Shown here: piece by piece, positions 7,542 to 33,692 of the stretch
Numbering within the stretch: position 1 is the stretch's first letter
How the letters are laid out: the number at the start of each line of letters is the position of its first letter
From: Octopus vulgaris
Taxonomy: Eukaryota
NCBI GenBank assembly: GCA_951406725.2
Contig: OX597834.1
Location: 24,366,001 to 24,430,000 of the forward strand
Length of the DNA stretch: 64,000 nt
Direction: 5' to 3'
Notes under the pieces: model-generated
Database searches by the model: none
What the model was told of the DNA's origin: nothing
What the model saw: the letters and a program-made list of their open reading frames with translations, nothing else
Position numbers and translations under genes: made by a program

Positions 7542-7816
7542 TATAACTGGGAATACATACATAGACTTGGGAACACACACACACAGAGTCAATCAGTGTG
7601 TTTGTGTGTGTATATACGTATGATATGCATATGTGTATGTAGTATATATATATAGTAAAAAAAGAAATTATATTATATAGTTTCTTTTTTTTAATCTATA
7701 ATTGATCCTTTCATCCAATTGTCTGTCTATCTCTCTCTTTCTATCTCATATATATATATGTATGTGTATATATAAGTATGTAAATATATATCTATATATA
7801 TATCTATTTCTTTCAG

Positions 7817-7909
7817 GGTAGTTACTCAACCAAAGTGACTGCTATTGTGCATTGTCTTTTAAAGATTCGACAAAAGGATCCATTTGCTAAATCCCTTGTG
7901 TTTTCTACA
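7817..7909 (+). CDS. SHPRH: SHPRH exon G (start of helicase C-terminal domain)
   Basis: tctttcag / GTAAGA; GSYSTKVTAIVHCLLKIRQKDPFAKSLVFST matches 'GSHSTKVEAVVRTLMKIQLRDPGAKALVFST'. Confidence 0.95.
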
Positions 7910-7952
7910 GTAAGATATTTAAAATATATTGTGTGTTTGTATATATATGTGT

Positions 7953-8162
7953 GTGTGACCTCGTGTGTACCGTTGGTGATTTTTTTCCTCTGTCTTCCCT
8001 TCTCGGGATCTTTCCTTCTCCTATGTTTCCAACGAAGAGCACCGCTCGAAACGTTAAACCCTCCTTCTTCCCTTCTTTCCTGAGCGTCCAATAATACTAT
8101 ATTTGTTCCATGTCCTCGCGTTGTTGTGTTTTTTTGTGTTTTCTTGTTTGGATTAACTATAT
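7953..8162 (+). mobile_element. Penelope-like terminal repeat fragment with mutated hammerhead (8025-8059)
   Basis: Homologous (reverse complement) to 33486-33692; gttt-CCAACGA-a-gagc acc gctc-GAAA-cgtt-aaac. Confidence 0.65.
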
Positions 8163-8420
8163 CATCATCATCATCATCATCATCATCGTTTAACGTCCGT
8201 TTTCCGCGCTAGCACGGGTTGGACGGTTCGACCGGGGTCTGGGAAGCCAGGGGCCGCTCCAGGCTCCAGTCTGATTCTGGCAGAGTTTCTACGGCTGGAT
8301 GCCCTTCCTAACGCCAACCACTCCGTGAGTGGATTGGGTGCTTTTTACGTGCCACCTGCACAGGGGCCGGGGGGTCCGGCATCGGTCACGATCGGTTCGA
8401 GCTTTTAACGTGCCAGGGAC
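8163..8420 (-). mobile_element. RTE-type 3' tail with (GAT)n, antisense to SHPRH
   Basis: (CAT)n followed by the reverse complement of the RTE tail seen at 2038-2225 and 26255-26464. Confidence 0.85.
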
Positions 8421-8924
8421 ACGGGGGCAACGGGATGCGGGGTAGAGTTGAGTTGGGGGGGGGGGTCCAGCTGAGAAAGGTTTCACCAGTGAAAAGAGAG
8501 GGAGAGATAGTAAAGGGGTGCAGGTAATATAGGGGAGCACCAGTGGGGAAGGAGGAACGATGGCAGGAAGGGTTGGTGAAGGTTCGTAAGAAATATAAAC
8601 GTAGGATGTGTATATATATATATGGGTAGGTGTGGGGAAGGTTGGGTGGGTAAGGAGGAACGATGGCAGGAAGGGTTGGTGCAGGTTCGTAAGAAATAAA
8701 AACGTAGGATATTACGAGGCATGGAGGGGACTGGAAGGAGATAGTAGGATTGAGGCAGTGTCAGATTCAAAACAGGAGGAAGCGTAAGATCAGAGGGCGG
8801 TTGATGAGCTGAGACGCTAGCAGCTTGTCTTTTCTCAGTGAAAGCATATGAGGAGAGGGGTAGGAAGGGGTGGTGGGGGAGGAGGAGGGAGTATCCGGTG
8901 TAGATGGTGAGAACAGTGTTCACC

Positions 8925-9258
8925 GGTATTGGTGGTATTGGCGGTGGGGGGGTGGTATTGGTGGTGGGGGTGGTATTGGTGGTGGTGGGGGTGGTATTGG
9001 TGGTGGTGGTATTGGTGGTGGGGGTGGTATTGGTGGTGGGGGTGGTGGTGGTGGTGGTGGTGGTGGTGGTGGGGGTGGGTGGGGGTGGTATTGGTGGTAT
9101 TGGTGGTGGGGGTGGGGGTGGTATTGGTGGTGGGGGTGGTATTGGTGGTGGGGGTGGTATTGGTGGTGGGGGTGGTATTGGTGGTGGGGGTGGTATTGGT
9201 GGTGGGGGTGGTATTGGTGGTGGGGGTGGTATTGGTGGTGGGGGTGGGAGGGCGGGCG
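8925..9258. repeat. G-rich minisatellite, mainly 18-bp GGTGGTATTGGTGGTGGG
   Basis: Directly visible; source of the poly-Pro/Gly/Trp ORFs. Confidence 0.95.
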
Positions 9259-9715
9259 CACCGCGCAATGGGAGAAGATGAGATTTTTAGGCGGCAGAAA
9301 GAAAGACAGGATTTGAGATGGAATGCTTTGCGATCGTGTGCATAAGTTTCTATGAGTGGAAGTTGGGAAAAGATGGGTTAGAGAATTTAGCGACAGAAAG
9401 AAAGACCAAATTTGAGACGAGATGTTTTTGCGAAGTTTTTGTAAATGAAAGTTTATATGCTTCAGCTAGCATTTGAGACGAAAGACAACGATAACGCCAA
9501 TATATGGGGAAACAATAATAATAAGAAGGCTTGATGGTGATGATGATACTTGCAAAAAAACAATGAAAAGAAGGAACAGGACTTAGCTGATATTTTTCAT
9601 CCTGCGTATTGGCTAAGCCTGTGGAAGCGAGTGAAGGCGAGATATATATACAGAGAGAGAGAGAGACAGTGATAACAGAGGGAGAAACCGACACCACATA
9701 GCGAGAGAGAGAGAG

Positions 9716-9750
<35 letters not shown>

Positions 9751-10214
9751 GTGATAACAGAGGGACAAAACGACACCGCGCAATGGGAGAAGATGAGATT
9801 TTTAGGCGGCAGAAAGAAAGACAGGATTTGAGATGGAATGCTTTGCGATCGTGTGCATAAGTTTCTATGAGTGGAAGTTGGGAAAAGATGGGTTAGAGAA
9901 TTTAGCGACAGAAAGAAAGACCAAATTTGAGACGAGATGTTTTTGCGAAGTTTTTGTAAATGAAAGTTTATATGCTTCAGCTAGCATTTGAGACGAAAGA
10001 CAACGATAACGCCAATATATGGGGAAACAATAATAATAAGAAGGCTTGATGGTGATGATGATACTTGCAAAAAAACAATGAAAAGAAGGAACAGGACTTA
10101 GCTGATATTTTTCATCCTGCGTATTGGCTAAGCCTGTGGAAGCGAGTGAAGGCGAGATATATATACAGAGAGAGAGAGAGACAGTGATAACAGAGGGAGA
10201 AACCGACACCACAT

Positions 10215-10251
<37 letters not shown>

Positions 10252-10715
10252 GTGATAACAGAGGGACAAAACGACACCGCGCAATGGGAGAAGATGAGAT
10301 TTTTAGGCGGCAGAAAGAAAGACAGGATTTGAGATGGAATGCTTTGCGATCGTGTGCATAAGTTTCTATGAGTGGAAGTTGGGAAAAGATGGGTTAGAGA
10401 ATTTAGCGACAGAAAGAAAGACCAAATTTGAGACGAGATGTTTTTGCGAAGTTTTTGTAAATGAAAGTTTATATGCTTCAGCTAGCATTTGAGACGAAAG
10501 ACAACGATAACGCCAATATATGGGGAAACAATAATAATAAGAAGGCTTGATGGTGATGATGATACTTGCAAAAAACAATGAAAAAGAAGGAACAGGACTT
10601 AGCTGATATTTTTCATCCTGCGTATTGGCTAAGCCTGTGGAAGCGAGTGAAGGCGAGATATATATACAGAGAGAGAGAGAGACAGTGATAACAGAGGCAG
10701 AAACCGACACCACAT

Positions 10716-10768
<53 letters not shown>

Positions 10769-11231
10769 GTGATAACAGAGGGACAAAACGACACCGCGCA
10801 ATGGGAGAAGATGAGATTTTTAGGCGGCAGAAAGAAAGACAGGATTTGAGATGGAATGCTTTGCGATCGTGTGCATAAGTTTCTATGAGTGGAAGTTGGG
10901 AAAAGATGGGTTAGAGAATTTAGCGACAGAAAGAAAGACCAAATTTGAGACGAGATGTTTTTGCGAAGTTTTTGTAAATGAAAGTTTATATGCTTCAGCT
11001 AGCATTTGAGACGAAAGACAACGATAACGCCAATATATGGGGAAACAATAATAATAAGAAGGCTTGATGGTGATGATGATACTTGCAAAAAACAATGAAA
11101 AGAAGGAACAGGACTTAGCTGATATTTTTCATCCTGCGTATTGGCTAAGCCTGTGGAAGCGAGTGAAGGCGAGATATATATACAGAGAGAGAGAGAGACA
11201 GTGATAACAGAGGGAGAAACCGACACCACAT

Positions 11232-11268
<37 letters not shown>

Positions 11269-11730
11269 GTGATAACAGAGGGACAAAACGACACCGCGCA
11301 ATGTGAGAAGATGAGATTTTTAGGCGGCAGAAAGAAAGACAGGATTTGAGATGGAATGCTTTGCGATCGTGTGCATAAGTTTCTATGAGTGGAAGTTGGG
11401 AAAAGATGGGTTAGAGAATTTAGCGACAGAAAGAAAGACCAAATTTGAGACGAGATGTTTTTGCGAAGTTTTTGTAAATGAAAGTTTATATGCTTCAGCT
11501 AGCATTTGAGACGAAAGACAACGATAACGCCAATATATGGGGAAACAATAATAATAAGAAGGCTTGATGGTGATGATGATACTTGCAAAAACAATGAAAA
11601 GAAGGAACAGGACTTAGCTGATATTTTTCATCCTGCGTATTGGCTAAGCCTGTGGAAGCGAGTGAAGGCGAGATATATATACAGAGAGAGAGAGAGACAG
11701 TGATAACAGAGGGAGAAACCGACACCACAT

Positions 11731-11783
<53 letters not shown>

Positions 11784-12246
11784 GTGATAACAGAGGGACA
11801 AAACGACACCGCGCAATGGGAGAAGATGAGATTTTTAGGCGGCAGAAAGAAAGACAGGATTTGAGATGGAATGCTTTGCGATCGTGTGCATAAGTTTCTA
11901 TGAGTGGAAGTTGGGAAAAGATGGGTTAGAGAATTTAGCGACAGAAAGAAAGACCAAATTTGAGACGAGATGTTTTTGCGAAGTTTTTGTAAATGAAAGT
12001 TTATATGCTTCAGCTAGCATTTGAGACGAAAGACAACGATAACGCCAATATATGGGGAAACAATAATAATAAGAAGGCTTGATGGTGATGATGATACTTG
12101 CAAAAAACAATGAAAAGAAGGAACAGGACTTAGCTGATATTTTTCATCCTGCGTATTGGCTAAGCCTGTGGAAGCGAGTGAAGGCGAGATATATATACAG
12201 AGAGAGAGAGAGACAGTGATAACAGAGGGAGAAACCGACACCACAT

Positions 12247-12295
<49 letters not shown>

Positions 12296-12774
12296 GTGAT
12301 AACAGAGGGACAAAACGACACCGCGCAATGGGAGAAGATGAGATTTTTAGGCGGCAGAAAGAAAGACAGGATTTGAGATGGAATGCTTTGCGATCGTGTG
12401 CATAAGTTTCTATGAGTGGAAGTTGGGAAAAGATGGGTTAGAGAATTTAGCGACAGAAAGAAAGACCAAATTTGAGACGAGATGTTTTTGCGAAGTTTTT
12501 GTAAATGAAAGTTTATATGCTTCAGCTAGCATTTGAGACGAAAGACAACGATAACGCCAATATATGGGGAAACAATAATAATAAGAAGGCTTGATGGTGA
12601 TGATGATACTTGCAAAAAACAATGAAAAGAAGGAACAGGACTTAGCTGATATTTTTCATCCTGCGTATTGGCTAAGCCTGTGGAAGCGAGTGAAGGCGAG
12701 ATATATATACAGAGAGAGAGAGAGACAGTGATAACAGAGGGAGAAACCGACACCACATAGCGAGAGAGAGAGAG

Positions 12775-12811
<37 letters not shown>

Positions 12812-13275
12812 GTGATAACAGAGGGACAAAACGACACCGCGCAATGGGAGAAGATGAGATTTTTAGGCGGCAGAAAGAAAGACAGGATTTGAGATGGAAT
12901 GCTTTGCGATCGTGTGCATAAGTTTCTATGAGTGGAAGTTGGGAAAAGATGGGTTAGAGAATTTAGCGACAGAAAGAAAGACCAAATTTGAGACGAGATG
13001 TTTTTGCGAAGTTTTTGTAAATGAAAGTTTATATGCTTCAGCTAGCATTTGAGACGAAAGACAACGATAACGCCAATATATGGGGAAACAATAATAATAA
13101 GAAGGCTTGATGGTGATGATGATACTTGCAAAAAAACAATGAAAAGAAGGAACAGGACTTAGCTGATATTTTTCATCCTGCGTATTGGCTAAGCCTGTGG
13201 AAGCGAGTGAAGGCGAGATATATATACAGAGAGAGAGAGAGACAGTGATAACAGAGGGAGAAACCGACACCACAT

Positions 13276-13314
<39 letters not shown>

Positions 13315-13778
13315 GTGATAACAGAGGGACAAAACGACACCGCGCAATGGGAGAAGATGAGATTTTTAGGCGGCAGAAAGAAAGACAGGATTTGAGATGG
13401 AATGCTTTGCGATCGTGTGCATAAGTTTCTATGAGTGGAAGTTGGGAAAAGATGGGTTAGAGAATTTAGCGACAGAAAGAAAGACCAAATTTGAGACGAG
13501 ATGTTTTTGCGAAGTTTTTGTAAATGAAAGTTTATATGCTTCAGCTAGCATTTGAGACGAAAGACAACGATAACGCCAATATATGGGGAAACAATAATAA
13601 TAAGAAGGCTTGATGGTGATGATGATACTTGCAAAAAAACAATGAAAAGAAGGAACAGGACTTAGCTGATATTTTTCATCCTGCGTATTGGCTAAGCCTG
13701 TGGAAGCGAGTGAAGGCGAGATATATATACAGAGAGAGAGAGAGACAGTGATAACAGAGGGAGAAACCGACACCACAT

Positions 13779-13817
<39 letters not shown>

Positions 13818-14279
13818 GTGATAATAGAGGGACAAAACGACACCGCGCAATGGGAGAAGATGAGATTTTTAGGCGGCAGAAAGAAAGACAGGATTTGAGA
13901 TGGAATGCTTTGCGATCGTGTGCATAAGTTTCTATGAGTGGAAGTTGGGAAAAGATGGGTTAGAGAATTTAGCGACAGAAAGAAAGACCAAATTTGAGAC
14001 GAGATGTTTTTGCGAAGTTTTTGTAAATGAAAGTTTATATGCTTCAGCTAGCATTTGAGACGAAAGACAACGATAACGCCAATATATGGGGAAACAATAA
14101 TAATAAGAAGGCTTGATGGTGATGATGATACTTGCAAAAACAATGAAAAGAAGGAACAGGACTTAGCTGATATTTTTCATCCTGCGTATTGGCTAAGCCT
14201 GTGGAAGCGAGTGAAGGCGAGATATATATACAGAGAGAGAGAGAGACAGTGATAACAGAGGGAGAAACCGACACCACAT

Positions 14280-14328
<49 letters not shown>

Positions 14329-14807
14329 GTGATAACAGAGGGACAAAACGACACCGCGCAATGGGAGAAGATGAGATTTTTAGGCGGCAGAAAGAAAGAC
14401 AGGATTTGAGATGGAATGCTTTGCGATCGTGTGCATAAGTTTCTATGAGTGGAAGTTGGGAAAAGATGGGTTAGAGAATTTAGCGACAGAAAGAAAGACC
14501 AAATTTGAGACGAGATGTTTTTGCGAAGTTTTTGTAAATGAAAGTTTATATGCTTCAGCTAGCATTTGAGACGAAAGACAACGATAACGCCAATATATGG
14601 GGAAACAATAATAATAAGAAGGCTTGATGGTGATGATGATACTTGCAAAAAACAATGAAAAGAAGGAACAGGACTTAGCTGATATTTTTCATCCTGCGTA
14701 TTGGCTAAGCCTGTGGAAGCGAGTGAAGGCGAGATATATATACAGAGAGAGAGAGAGACAGTGATAACAGAGGGAGAAACCGACACCACATAGCGAGAGA
14801 GAGAGAG

Positions 14808-14842
<35 letters not shown>

Positions 14843-15280
14843 GTGATAACAGAGGGACAAAACGACACCGCGCAATGGGAGAAGATGAGATTTTTAGGCG
14901 GCAGAAAGAAAGACAGGATTTGAGATGGAATGCTTTGCGATCGTGTGCATAAGTTTCTATGAGTGGAAGTTGGGAAAAGATGGGTTAGAGAATTTAGCGA
15001 CAGAAAGAAAGACCAAATTTGAGACGAGATGTTTTTGCGAAGTTTTTGTAAATGAAAGTTTATATGCTTCAGCTAGCATTTGAGACGAAAGACAACGATA
15101 ACGCCAATATATGGGGAAACAATAATAATAAGAAGGCTTGATGGTGATGATGATACTTGCAAAAAACAATGAAAAGAAGGAACAGGACTTAGCTGATATT
15201 TTTCATCCTGCGTATTGGCTAAGCCTGTGGAAGCGAGTGAAGGCGAGATATATATACAGAGAGAGAGAGAGACAGTGATA
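9259..15280. repeat. tandem array of ~500-517-bp units (11 full plus 1 partial)
   Basis: Units start caccgcgcaatg at about 9259, 9774, 10275, 10792, 11292, 11807, 12319, 12835, 13338, 13841, 14352 and 14866; they differ mainly in (GA)n and A-run length. Confidence 0.98.
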
Positions 15281-15293
15281 TATGTATTATATA

Positions 15294-15679: not shown

Positions 15680-15766
15680 TGGTCAAGTGTATTAGAGATA
15701 ATTGGTCAAGCATTGGCCATGAATGGCATTAGATATTCCACTTTATCTTCAGGGAAACAGTCCCAG
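15680..15766 (+). CDS. SHPRH: SHPRH exon H
   Basis: atatttcag / GTTTGT; WSSVLEIIGQALAMNGIRYSTLSSGKQSQ resembles 'WQDVLDIISKALTDNNMEFAQISRVKTFQ'. Confidence 0.9.
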
Positions 15767-21920: not shown

Positions 21921-24322
21921 ATTGATGATGATGATGATGGTGGTAGTGCTATGGGTACGAGTTAATGGAGGTGGTGGTGGCGGCGGTTGCGGTTATAGGG
22001 ATATTGGTTGAAGGAGGTGGCGATGGTGTCAGTTGGGATTTTCATTAAAGAAGGTAGAAGTGGTGGTGGTTGCACAACGTTATTTGTAGTTTGTTTTGTT
22101 ATTTTATATTGCCCATCACTTAACGCATGCGCCTTAGTGAATTCATTGTCGTCTGCTCAGTCAACGCTTAAATTTGTTGATGAAACATGGATTACAAAAA
22201 CACGATGTTAGCAAACAAGAGAAGGTTTAAGGTAAGTTGTTGTCATGGTTTTTAATTTGGTTAGTGTATAATTATTGCGGCTTTTTCCAACAATTTTTAA
22301 ATGACGGTCTGACAAGCAAATAGGAAGCAGTAATTGAAGTTCATGGTGAATATGCTCCGGAATAATCATTTAAAGATGTTTTTGTGACATGTTGTTATTG
22401 TTTATGTTGAAAAAAGCCGCAATATTTTCAAATGACCGTATTAAGATTTGTTAAAACTTTACCAACTTATTATAAATAACTCTTTTGTCGTAGCTTTTTA
22501 CGATTAAAATGAAACATTCTCCACGAATGGATAGGGTGAAAAAGAACTTTAGAATTTTGAAAGAAGTATTGGTAAAACATTAATGTCAGTCGTTTCAAAT
22601 GTTGAAAAGAATATTTCTGTTAATCGAAGAAAAGTGTAATGGGACGAAAAATATCTCATTTTCGCCTCTCTCTACGATAGCAACAGTTTGTTCTGAGTAA
22701 AACAGTTTATTTATGTTTCTCTTTGTGTTGTGTGATGAAAAACAGGATTAAATTTGTTGGAAATTATGCCTGCTACTCAAACCAGGTAAGTACTAATGCA
22801 TTCTTGTTATTTTTTCATTTTTATATTGTATCGAAGAATGATTTTATAGAGTGACAAAAGTATGAAAAATCGCAGAAAATAATGAAAAAACAACAAACTA
22901 AAACAATGAATAAATTTTGATTGTGAAAAGTACGATGAAAAAGGATTGGAAGGTTTAGAACATTCTCTTTAAATAATACGAATTGCAATTGTTGCAAAAA
23001 GGAGATTACAATAAAATAACTATAAATAAATAAAAAAAAAATGTCATAATTATACAAGTCTGCCTCCAACTTTGTTTCCCCAAAACTTTCAGAAAAATTG
23101 TTATCTTTTTTACTGAAATTTTCTGCAAATGCCTCTCAGGTATAGATTACGATTATAACGGAATTCACTGTGGTGAAAAGAAATTGTTGGCTGTACACAC
23201 ATACATAGATACACGTTACATAACTTTTATCAACATTTCATGTCTCATTCTTTGTGTGCGCGCCTCCCAATTAATTTTTTTATTAACATTAAATTCCGAC
23301 ACGATCGTAATCAACATTACCTGTAAGGTATTTCTAGTGAGTTTCATTTCAAGTGTAACAGTTTTTCCTTGAAGTTATGAGGAGTCAAAGCCTAGTGGGA
23401 GAAGGTACATTTGTGTGTGCTATACCGAGAAAAATATCATTTTAATGGTGATTGCCGTTCCAGAGTCACAATAATGGTGAGGGAGGGGGGGGGAGATAAT
23501 CGTTTTAAAACAAGGATTTTAATGTTTTCAAGAGCTTCTCCCTGTTGTTTTGAAATGTGCGGTAAAGAAAACTTGAAAAAATCCCGACTAAAACGAAGAA
23601 AATTGTGGGACACCTATTTCGAAAATCCGGCTTATGTTGGACAGCTACTCCGTAAGGTCCATATTTTATAATATAGACATTACGATTCTGAACCCCCCCC
23701 CTCGTCTTCTCGCTTCTTTCAACTTGAAAACTTTTAAAAACGTCACTTGCGCATGCGTAGATACATGCTAAGCAATTAGCAGACGATCCTTTATTAACAA
23801 CGAAATTTCCATGCTTTCTGAGATTCGCTAACACTACACTTGATTTTCTCCCCTCCATACACACACGGGCATGTATCTGTCTCATACATTGTTCGCTTTC
23901 CAGACATTTTTACATTACTGCATGTACTTTATATGCACTTTCTGACAAGTTGTGGTGCACCTGAGCACTGTATACAATAATTTCATTATTATATTATTTT
24001 AAAATACAGACATTACGATTCTGAAACATCCCCCCCACCTCGTCTTCTCGCTTCTTTCAACTTGAAAACTTTTAAGAACGTCACTTGCGCATGCGTAGAT
24101 ACATGCTAAGCAATTAGCAGACGATTCTTTATTAACAACGAAAAAATCTTTATTTTTAAAAAAATTATTTCGAAATTTAAGTCTAATTTCCACTACCACA
24201 ATCTTTTTTTAATTTTTGATTATTAAATTTTTTTTTTAATTACAAATTTAAAGTCAATTTTTGCTTTTATCTACATATATTTGCATGTCTGTGGGAATGA
24301 CTGACTGATTGCGAGACAGTGT

Positions 24323-25757
24323 GTGAGAGAGAATCATGATGTTGTAGGAGAGAAATGTGTCCACATGGATGATGGTTCTCTTGCACTAAATGAGGCTGCA
24401 AAGAGAGAGGTTTGGAGACGCTACTATGAAAGGTTGCTGAACAAAGAAAATGAATGGGAGAAAGAGAGTCTGCCGATTGTCGACCCAACAGAGGGACCAG
24501 CTATCCGAGTTGAGAGTAACTTGGTAGATAAAACAATTAAAAGTATGATGACAGGGAAAGCCCCCGGCCCATCAGGAATTACTGCAGAGATGCTCAAAAT
24601 ATCTGGCAGTGTCGGCTATAGCCTGGTTACCCGTATAATTAACCAGGTGATACACGGAGTCATACCCAATGACTGGTGTAGCAGCACTGTAGTTAACTGC
24701 TACAAAGGAAAAGGTGACGCTTTAGATACAAATAATTACAGAGGTATCAAGCTCTTTGATCAGGTAATGATCACGGAGAGGGTCATAGCCCAACTAATTA
24801 GGGAGACAGTCAGTTTGGATGAGATGCAGTTTGGTTTCGTGCCAGGGAAAAGTACCACTGATGCTATATTTCTGGTGAGACAGCTGCAGGAGAAATACCT
24901 AGCCAAAGATAAGCCCCTGTACCTGGCTTTCGTTGACATGGAGAAAGCCTTTGACAGGGTCCCCCGATCCCTTATCTGGTGGTCAATGAGGAAACTAGGG
25001 ATAGATGAATGGTTAGTGAGAGCTGTGCAAACCATATACAGGGACGCTGTCAGTAAGTTGAGGGTTGGCAACGAGTACAGTGAAGAATTCCGGGTAGAAG
25101 TAGGGGTCCACCAAGATTCAGTCCTCAGCCCCCTCCTATTTATCATAGTCCTCCAGGCAATAATGGAGGAATTCAAGACAGGATGCCCCTGGGAGCTCCT
25201 CTATGCTGACGACCTTGCTCTAATTGCTGAGTCACTCACAGAACTAGAGAAGTTTCAAGTGTGGAAACAAGGATTAGAATCGACGGGTCTTAGAGTCAAC
25301 CTAGCTAAAACCAAAGTCCTAATAAGTAGGAAGGCAGGCAAACCGCAAATCCCTTCAGGCAGATGGCTCGATCTGTAGAAAAGGCGTAGGTAGAAACTCT
25401 ATAAGATATACCCAGTGTAAGCTATGGACACATAAGAGGTGCAGCAATATCAAAGGAAGGCTAACTGGGAGGATAGTTTTCGTATGTGGTAGATGCTCGG
25501 GAGCTATAAATAACACTGAAAATGTGCAGAGAACAACTTCCGCCACATTCCAGGGAGAAAAACTAGAAGTAGTTGATAGTTTCCGTTACCTAGGTGACCA
25601 AGTCAGTAGCGAGGGAGGGTGCACTGAAAGTGTAGCTGCTAGAATAAGAATAGCTTGGGCTAAGTTCAGAGAACTCTTACCTCTGCTGGTGACAAAGGGC
25701 CTCTCGCTCAGAGTAAAAGGTAAACTGTACGACACATGTGTACGAACAGCCATGCTG
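24323..25757 (+). mobile_element. RTE-clade LINE reverse transcriptase, 5'-truncated and frameshifted
   Basis: KAPGPSG, NYRGIKL, QFGFVPGKSTTDAIF, FVDMEKAFD, GVHQDSVLSP, LYADD, FRYLG; frameshift near 25367; ORF cut after RTAML. Confidence 0.95.
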
Positions 25758-25779
25758 TGTAATTAAAATACATATCAAA

Positions 25780-26464
25780 ATCAGTTCGATGACTGGCATC
25801 CGTGCCAGCGGGGTGCAAAAAGCACCATATGAGTGTGATCGTTGACAGAGCGGCTACTCGAGTATGATCGTTACCAGCGTCGCCTTACTGGCACTTATGC
25901 CTGTGCTAGTAGGGTGCCAAGAGCACCATCCGAGCGTGATCGTTGCCAGAACAGCCAACTGGCTTCCGTACCCGTGGCACGTAAAAGAGCACCATTCGAG
26001 CGTTATCGTTACCAACGTCGCTTTATTGGCACGTGTAAAAAGATTCGAGCGAGGTCATTGCCAGTACCTATTTCTTTATTACCCACAAGGGGCTAAACAT
26101 AGAGGGGACAAACAAGGACAGACATAGGTATTAAGTCGATTACATCGACCCCAGTGCGTAACTGGTACTTATTTTATCGACCCCGAAAGGATGAAAGGCA
26201 AAGTCGACCTCGGCGGAATTTGAACTCACAACGTAACGACAGACGAAATACCGCCTGACTGGTCCCCGTGCCGGTGGCACGTAAAAGGCACCCACTACAC
26301 TCTCGGAGTGGTTGGCGTTAGGAAGGGCATCCAGCTGTAGAAACTCTGCCAGATCAAGATTAGAGCCTGGTGCAGCCATCTGGTTCGCCAGCCCTCAGTC
26401 AAAATCATCCAACCCATGCTAGCATGGAAAGCGGACGTTAAATGACGACGATGATGATGATGAT
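25780..26464 (+). mobile_element. RTE 3' UTR with short internal repeats and (GAT)n tail, interrupted by a family B SINE (26069-26253, -)
   Basis: Repeated gcaccat..gag(c/t)gt.atcgtt units; tail ends aaagcggacgttaaatgacgacgatgatgat. Confidence 0.8.
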
Positions 26465-26782
26465 GTGCATATATTAATTCAATATATGTATATGTGTACG
26501 TATGCTTATGGGTGTTGCAAATATTCAGACCATCTCACCTGTTTGGTGATACCTTCTGCCATCCCACTGTCACTTGAGGGTGATATTCTTTTCTTTCTTT
26601 TAATCTTTCTTGTTTCAGTCATTAGACTGTGGCCATGCTGGGGCACCACCTTGAGAATTTTAAAGTCGAATTAAGTTTATCTATCAATCTCTTTTGTCGA
26701 ACTGCTAAGTTACGGGGATGTAAACACCAGCACCAGTTGCCAAGTGTTGGGGGACAAACACAGGCACAAAAACACACATACG

Positions 26783-33465: not shown

Positions 33466-33485
33466 TATATATATATATATATATA

Positions 33486-33692
33486 AAGTTAACCCAAACA
33501 TGAAAACACAAAGAGAAAACACAACACGAGGACGTGGAACAAGTATAGTGTTATTGGACTCTCAGAAAAGGAAAGGAAGAAAGAGGATTTAATGTTTCGA
33601 GCGGAGCTCTTCGTCAGAAACATAGGAAAAGGAAGGATCCAAGGAAGGGAAGACGGAGGAAAAAAATCGCCAATGATACACACGCGGTCACA
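33486..33692 (-). mobile_element. Penelope-like terminal repeat next to (TA)n
   Basis: Homologous to 7953-8162; contains a hammerhead motif. Confidence 0.7.
33588..33620 (-). ncRNA. minimal type I hammerhead ribozyme motif
   Basis: RNA: uuu-CUGACGA-a-gagc ucc gcuc-GAAA-c-AUU-aaa; core intact, stem III palindrome broken by one change. Confidence 0.6.

Follow-up and report, generated by a model that had tools for sequence, protein, structure and literature searches.

A young non-coding retroelement assembled from two RTE LINE families, with a tandem 5' array, in an intron of Octopus vulgaris

The block and its locus

In a 64,000-bp stretch of the Octopus vulgaris genome (assembly GCA_951406725.2, contig OX597834.1, positions 24,366,001 to 24,430,000 of the forward strand; hereafter the window, in whose coordinates positions are given unless another locus is named), a block of about 7.1 kb lies antisense within a phase-0 intron, between host exons at 7817-7909 and 15680-15766. 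The block is one young non-coding copy of a dispersed retroelement family that combines sequences of two long interspersed nuclear element (LINE) families, here called RTE-A and RTE-B. The origin of each part, the junctions, the dispersal and youth of the family, its TA-repeat targets and the linear copying of its array are established by the observations below.

Read on the minus strand, the block runs from a tandem array through a variable number tandem repeat (VNTR) and a spacer to a LINE 3' tail. The array has 12 unit starts at 9259-14866, spaced by 500-517 bp, giving 11 full units and 416 bp, in agreement with the ~11.8 units of ~510 bp described in a first-pass annotation of the stretch. 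Differences among these units are restricted to the length of a (GA)n run, one A-run and 3 single-base changes. The same annotation correctly recognized an 18-bp VNTR (8931-9247, 17.3 copies, G-rich on the forward and C-rich on the minus strand), a tail ending in (GAT)n and an internal duplication of ~60 bp, which measured 65 bp (8543-8607 versus 8646-8710, 95% identity). The spacer that it began at 8420 is present, with a different boundary, the LINE 3' part running to 8444. The features, with open reading frame and untranslated region abbreviated as ORF and UTR, are as follows.

8161-8187, minus strand: (GAT)n microsatellite 3' tail, 9 repeats ((ATC)x9 on the forward strand); the same tail ends RTE-A copies
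8188-8444, minus strand: RTE-A 3' end, with the last ~13 ORF codons and the 3' UTR, assigned by identity to RTE-A copies; predicted recognition site of the LINE protein
8443-8444, minus strand: ORF-deletion junction between LINE 5' UTR and LINE 3' end, with 2-bp TA microhomology; pattern found at 74 loci
8443-8608, minus strand: second piece of the RTE-A 5' UTR, up to the deletion junction; 87.5-89.8% identical to RTE-A copies, gaps included
8611-8637, minus strand: short (TA)n and remnant of an older deletion junction, the putative source of the 65-bp duplication; older copies (L121, L133, L144, L155) join UTR to tail here
8638-8930, minus strand: first piece of the RTE-A 5' UTR (the former 'unique spacer'), tether-like; 93.4-94.1% identical to four LINE copies running into the endonuclease ORF
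8931-9247, minus strand: C-rich VNTR grown from an RTE-A 5' UTR motif, by comparison with that UTR, where it has 1 to several copies
9246-9264, minus strand: hinge motif common to RTE-A, RTE-B and a third monomer type, from a four-way comparison; predicted swap point
9259-15279, minus strand: 11.8 tandem units derived from the 621-bp RTE-B 5' monomer (452 of 473 aligned columns identical); predicted promoter array
9606-9607, minus strand: site, in each unit, where 114 bp with the TATA box and apparent start region of RTE-B have been lost, from the alignment
9621-9632, minus strand: 12-bp window of clustered 5' ends (unit positions 363-374, 12 of 61 ends), present in every unit, directly upstream of a hairpin and CCAAT motif; predicted start site
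8158-8162, no strand: TATAT, left copy of a possible 5-bp target duplication
15279-15283, no strand: TATAT, right copy, at the 5' truncation point of the element
7817-7909, plus strand: host exon on the upstream side of the insertion (SNF2 helicase with a RING domain, likely SHPRH)
15680-15766, plus strand: host exon downstream of the insertion

The host gene exons encode RING and SNF2 Helicase_C domains (Pfam), and because one 36-aa exon has SHPRH (4qn1) as its top PDB match, weak at E 0.1, the host gene is likely SHPRH. The earlier placement in a SHPRH intron is upheld as to the helicase exons around the insertion, the gene name itself being only likely. The insertion point is the TA-rich end of a very abundant repeat that occupies the left flank (7954-8162); as had been noted for a sister copy near 33486, this repeat resembles 33483-33692 (85%). 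It has a hammerhead-like core without an Rfam match, and we take it to be of the Penelope type. The tatat duplication proposed earlier exists as TATAT at both ends and is indistinguishable from the TA-repeat context.

A young and dispersed family

The spacer had been called unique; it is LINE 5' UTR, and a query with it gave 701 candidates, of which 40 of 40 scored matches were 97-100% identical. An exact 30-mer from it occurs at 80 loci, all of which were inspected: 75 are joined to the RTE-A tail (two with the end of the tail cut off), four run into an endonuclease ORF and one does neither. The junction of unit and hinge was found at 102 loci and a unit 28-mer 690 times. Among the 100 unit-hinge loci inspected, one enters the ORF of RTE-B and two are tail-less, the rest being non-coding with an RTE tail. 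Over ~740 bp of tail and spacer, the 57 copies compared carry a median of 2 substitutions relative to the column majority, and the window copy carries 0. Family copies are truncated to a variable extent on the 5' side and hold 0 to ~40 units (median 3), and the VNTR spans 31-950 bp (median 287) across 52 copies.

These findings bear out the earlier proposal of one young non-autonomous retroelement with an RTE tail, and also its expectation that other loci would join spacer to tail with variable 5' truncation. Unit and spacer without the tail of the element, which had been named as a refuting observation, do occur literally, but in the parent LINEs; this explains where the parts came from and leaves the single element standing.

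No unique 5' head appeared when the longest arrays were walked: two end in flanking DNA after ~26 and ~39 units, and the others are cut off by an assembly gap or by the edge of the locus. In 51 of 63 copies, TA repeats flank the element on one side or both, as compared with 5% at random window positions (one-sided test). Public contigs at both flanks were swamped by repeats, and none spanned an element-flank junction. One insertion is present with identical flanks on a small scaffold (L082) and on C13 (L083), likely an uncollapsed haplotype.

RTE-A as source of spacer, VNTR and tail

The four spacer loci with an endonuclease reading frame are copies of RTE-A, and 30 further matches continue in the same way. 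Full-length RTE-A measures about 4 kb from hinge to tail. The tail of the element is 95.7-96.9% identical to that of four RTE-A copies and 94.5-95.7% to that of five copies with 1095-1117-aa open frames, versus 80-81% for three RTE-B copies. About 3.3 kb has been deleted, so that the end of the 5' UTR is fused to the last ORF codons through the 2-bp microhomology; in older subfamilies the breakpoint lies earlier than in the young one. The 65-bp duplication would most simply reflect fusion, over a short TA run, of an older deletion derivative with a second one. The own monomers of RTE-A (~310-390 bp) are different from the unit of the element. Open frames of at least 1079 aa were found in 34 of the 150 best RTE-A matches.

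The presumed partner, RTE-A, has a single ORF with endonuclease and reverse transcriptase (RT) domains (Pfam) and a microsatellite tail, and we presume it to belong to the RTE clade, partly from motifs. RTE-A was found through the spacer sequence, and not through a search with the generic RT profile (PF00078), which returned the tail of the element at the 3' end in 0 of 30 loci. That search also yielded a different young LINE, many copies of which have identical 949-aa open frames and which, from its C-terminal motifs, we take to be CR1-like. A PHD/C1-like cysteine-rich insert follows the RT domain in RTE-A and RTE-B ORFs (L194, L314, L312; Pfam E 1e-4, below the cut-off). The window itself contains a broken RTE LINE on the plus strand (24305-25763 and 26261-26465), whose older tail is 83% like that of the element.

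RTE-B as source of the unit, and the hinge

The single inspected unit-hinge locus that enters a different ORF belongs to RTE-B, the protein of which is 72% identical to that of RTE-A. A query with the RTE-B UTR gave 40 matches, and each of the 30 examined is preceded by tandem monomers akin to the unit. The 114-bp piece absent from the unit contains the TATA box and also the apparent start region of RTE-B: 4 of 29 RTE-B copies have their 5' ends in a 10-bp interval immediately downstream of that box. Among the examined loci, the TATA-bearing monomer occurs only with RTE-B (19 records, 17 distinct), and the TATA-less unit stands ahead of an endonuclease ORF at none.

Between array and UTR lies a hinge of ~30 bp that is common to RTE-A, RTE-B, the third monomer type and the element, and the sequence switches from B to A inside it. 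In a sister non-coding family (L203, L206, L212, L236; C1:75.33 Mb and others), the older ~380-bp unit stands on the third, TATC-rich monomer, which is present in 0 to 3 or more copies and is followed by another RTE 5' UTR and an 88% tail, a serial capture of 5' modules. From this stacking it follows that the array has been joined to at least two different bodies. An independent bipartite derivative at L121:2447-3400 joins an RTE 5' UTR to the last ~45 ORF codons and carries yet another 5' monomer type. At L202 and L256, a pyrimidine tract and a CAG|G acceptor-like site lie just upstream of the RTE-B ORF, and a spliced 5' UTR is possible.

Copying of the arrays and their proposed growth

The A-run consists of 5 A in almost every unit of the family. 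In the window its lengths follow the order 7,7,6,6,5,6,6,7,7,5,6,6, and a 6-unit copy at C1:200.37 Mb shows 7,7,6,6,5. The order agrees in 5 of 5 units (shuffle p 0.007), the GA-run lengths correlate at 0.94, the A7 variant is confined to these two loci (6 matches), and both copies share a private 10-bp spacer deletion. Since a unit-by-unit order is common to two chromosomes, copying of the array proceeded on a linear template, and the window copy may have been the donor. Against this, the C1:200.37 Mb copy is without two single-base changes (units 3 and 5) and a 1-bp deletion of the window copy, and in view of these three small private differences the window copy may instead be a sister, derived from a common lost source.

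Three variants are mixed in one long array, a mosaic that would point to growth at the DNA level or by template switching. Within an array the units hardly differ from one another, and some arrays carry private variants throughout. The arrays reach about 20 kb and could possibly seed satellites; nearly all those inspected are still attached to the element. The only free-standing array seen (L247, C1:27.30 Mb) has six young units without VNTR, spacer or tail. Two arrays of older units, each with an assembly gap on one side, were encountered at C2:55.353-55.373 Mb (L248, L249; ~50 units, the first four inverted) and at C2:59.55-59.57 Mb (L208, L250; ~34 units).

Proposed origin and transcription of the element

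With good confidence, we regard the block as a recent non-coding derivative of an RTE LINE, in which the 5' UTR and the 3' end of RTE-A are joined across an ORF deletion and preceded by an array of RTE-B monomers, and which is likely transcribed from the array and likely copied in trans by the RTE-A protein. Template switching or recombination within the common hinge would have placed the RTE-B array in front of a deletion derivative of RTE-A. The monomer would then have lost its TATA segment, and the youngest subfamily would use a start site in each unit, at position ~374. The RTE-A protein would bind the 3' tail and reverse-transcribe at TA repeats, stopping early or at the 5' end of the RNA, and the resulting loss of units might be offset by arrays lengthening at the DNA level or by template switching. 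The intron copy would be the source, or a sister, of the copy at C1:200.37 Mb. A much bolder version, to which we give only tentative credence, would see in the ~30-bp hinge a plug at which promoter arrays are swapped between RTE families and onto non-coding parasites; this parasite would have taken over the RTE-B array, excised the TATA box together with the start region and acquired a fresh start site in every unit; its retrotransposition would now be scattering arrays as long as 20 kb, and the SHPRH-intron copy would be a source element that is still alive.

Several observations weigh against our reading. The four RTE-A copies closest in the 5' UTR each have a broken ORF, and copies with an intact ORF form a slightly more distant subfamily (5' UTR 73-86%). 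The RTE assignment is based on a single-ORF layout of endonuclease (APE) and RT domains and on motifs, not on a tree. Target duplications, which the first-pass annotation had expected at other loci, could not be resolved outside microsatellites in 63 copies: none has a long unique duplication, and the 6 with a non-simple repeat of at least 7 bp all have it in microsatellite context. Further objections, taken up next, concern the array as a promoter.

Of the 61 5' ends counted in the young subfamily, 12 lie within unit positions 363-374, as against 1.4 expected, and positions 375-389 have none; with ends drawn uniformly, a 12-bp window holding 12 ends was reached in 0 of 100,000 trials. The clustered ends come from copies with 1 to 16 units. 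This count excludes a duplicate scaffold copy (L082), a gap-ended copy (L063) and the tail-less array (L247), and four ends were corrected by hand (L066, L125, L138, L141), one of which thereby falls outside the cluster. Both parent LINEs also show clusters of 5' ends at one monomer phase; in RTE-A, 9 of 30 loci end within ~50 bp (by eye). In mouse L1, clustering at a monomer phase has been read as internal initiation (bioRxiv 10.1101/2022.08.06.500894). The opposing facts are that 49 of the 61 ends lie outside the cluster (that of the window copy, at unit position ~415, among them), that 0 of 12 clustered junctions carry a cap-derived extra G, that the older subfamily with ~380-bp units has 0 of 43 ends at the same motif (Fisher p 0.001; excluding 4 edge-cut, 1 gap-ended and 1 unparsed locus and 2 intermediate-type copies, L144 and L155), and that the TATA box and start region of RTE-B are deleted from the unit, so that a promoter role is not simply inherited. 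We give a start site at the cluster in the young unit about an even chance, perhaps slightly better.

The strongest competitor, which we consider less probable than a promoter array without dismissing it, treats the array as cargo. The RNA would start upstream, by host read-through or within a small number of long master arrays. An RT that drops off as soon as it has copied the unit hairpin, or at a branch point for splicing 13 nt ahead of an acceptor-like CAG|G, would then account for the clustered 5' ends. All of the opposing facts just listed except the scatter of ends speak for it, as do the position of the cluster, 0-11 nt beyond a stem of ~11 bp that is more perfect in the young than in the old unit, and the pyrimidine tract and CAG|G that come after the cluster. 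However, the hairpin is no more stable than shuffled sequences (z -0.12), and no cluster is found on the entry side of the stem, where RT stalls are expected. The sharp upstream edge at 375-389 matches an initiator-like pyrimidine-A motif, in accordance with the initiator consensus, and the monomer-phase clusters of the parent LINEs point the same way.

Two further explanations fare far worse. One would have the array arise from a circular RNA of a single unit by rolling-circle reverse transcription, in the manner of retrozymes, or expand locally as a satellite once inserted. The near identity of units within an array, the array-wide private variants and the two arrays of ~26 and ~39 units would suit this, but the unit order shared between two chromosomes and the three-variant mosaic do not, nor does the unit have an Rfam ribozyme match; a scan of 7800-10300 to E 5, covering unit, spacer and tail, gave only a sub-threshold mir-27, although Rfam may miss unusual ribozymes. 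We regard this route as highly improbable and, for the window copy, largely refuted; growth after insertion may still explain the longest arrays. The other, no more credible, is an SVA-like composite, the term of the first-pass annotation, in which unrelated host sequences would have been captured on an RTE tail. The outward order of array, VNTR, spacer and tail and the variable length of a GC-rich VNTR are indeed reminiscent of SVA, but all parts can be traced to UTRs of the two RTE LINE families (spacer, VNTR and tail to RTE-A by internal deletion, the unit to the 5' monomer of RTE-B), no SINE (short interspersed nuclear element), hexamer or long terminal repeat (LTR) part was found, and the 30 RTE-A and 30 RTE-B loci argue against a secondary fusion of the LINE copies themselves.

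Two specific candidates were also considered and rejected. A hepatitis delta virus (HDV)-like ribozyme at the hairpin would cut at unit position 360, and the 12 ends lie at 363-374, as judged by sequence reasoning. A retrozyme was discarded on the Rfam result and the position-specific unit order at two loci.

Comparison with known elements

As far as its sequence can tell, the derivative of RTE-A and RTE-B proposed here answers to the description of a bipartite non-autonomous RTE LINE, to which a 5' array in the style of rodent L1 is added. Bipartite elements such as Bov-A, RTESINE1/2, WALLSI3 and MAR4_MD are described as retaining only the LINE 5' UTR and the extreme 3' end, the ORF having been lost by internal deletion, with a microsatellite tail and a presumed RNA polymerase II transcript moved in trans (PMC5786205). 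The element likewise has a 5' part from an autonomous LINE UTR, a LINE 3' end with a microsatellite tail, and dispersed 5'-truncated copies. Bipartite elements are said there to keep the 5' end of their own LINE usually, though not obligatorily, and the word 'tandem' is absent from the main text of that account (PMC5786205); here, in contrast, the own monomers of RTE-A are replaced by a multi-kilobase array derived from RTE-B.

Among the precedents that the first-pass annotation had named, the monomer arrays of rodent L1 are the fitting one, the unit being a LINE 5' monomer. As in the accounts of mouse and rat L1 (PMC5381506, PMC11602158, bioRxiv 10.1101/2022.08.06.500894), tandem monomers lie ahead of a non-repeated tether, and daughters are shorter than donors. 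The clustering of 5' ends at a single monomer phase that is described for rodent L1 is seen here in the young subfamily and not in the older one. Replacement of 5' UTRs and mosaic UTRs are attributed there to template switching, and array growth at the DNA level or by template switching has been proposed for mouse L1 (bioRxiv 10.1101/2022.08.06.500894). Unlike rodent L1 with its ORF1 and ORF2, the octopus element is non-coding, comes from an invertebrate, presumably belongs with the RTE clade and has a partner with a single ORF; its array comes from a LINE only 72% identical in protein, the TATA segment is deleted, and the promoter role is only predicted. The median of 3 and maximum of ~40 units compare with reported averages of 2.3-3.7 in mouse L1. 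One survey of vertebrate L1 describes little 5' UTR replacement outside mammals (PMC5381506).

With primate SVA the element shares a non-coding and presumably LINE-dependent nature and a GC-rich VNTR of variable length, but it has no CCCTCT hexamer, no Alu-like or SINE-R (HERV-K env/LTR) part and no poly(A), as SVA is outlined in PMC4859970. The octopus RTE-2_OV, compared by description only, has an ORF of 1109 aa, versus 1095-1117 aa in RTE-A frames, and is reported as expressed and possibly active; its 3' UTR is mostly microsatellite from the end of the ORF, whereas the RTE-A tail has ~240 bp, and the available description includes no tandem 5' array or derivative (PMC9115989). Satellite-like arrays inside, and spread by, mobile elements are known from the internal repeats of Helitrons and miniature inverted-repeat transposable elements (MITEs), the 3' UTR of Ogre and HeT-A (PMC9659126), but here a LINE 5' monomer is spread by reverse transcription, and free-standing arrays are rare so far. 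The octopus repeat library (PMC13282606) may hold these families as unnamed consensus sequences. In a literature search whose scope did not extend to curated libraries (Repbase/Dfam), subscription journals and supplements, we found no report of a non-coding RTE element with an array from another RTE family.

Significance

How LINEs gain promoters, and how monomer arrays are kept up despite the loss of units at each jump, are open questions that have been studied almost only in rodent L1. A single octopus genome holds the donor LINE, the recipient LINE, the swap point, intermediate subfamilies and a donor-daughter or sister pair, so that promoter swap and array turnover become traceable base by base and testable. 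A precedent exists for each ingredient, which limits the surprise; what is new is a bipartite non-autonomous RTE element whose own 5' end has been replaced by the tandem array of another LINE family. Its copies show a common joint through which such elements likely swap promoters, and they show that reverse transcription can carry multi-kilobase satellite-like arrays into the introns of genes.

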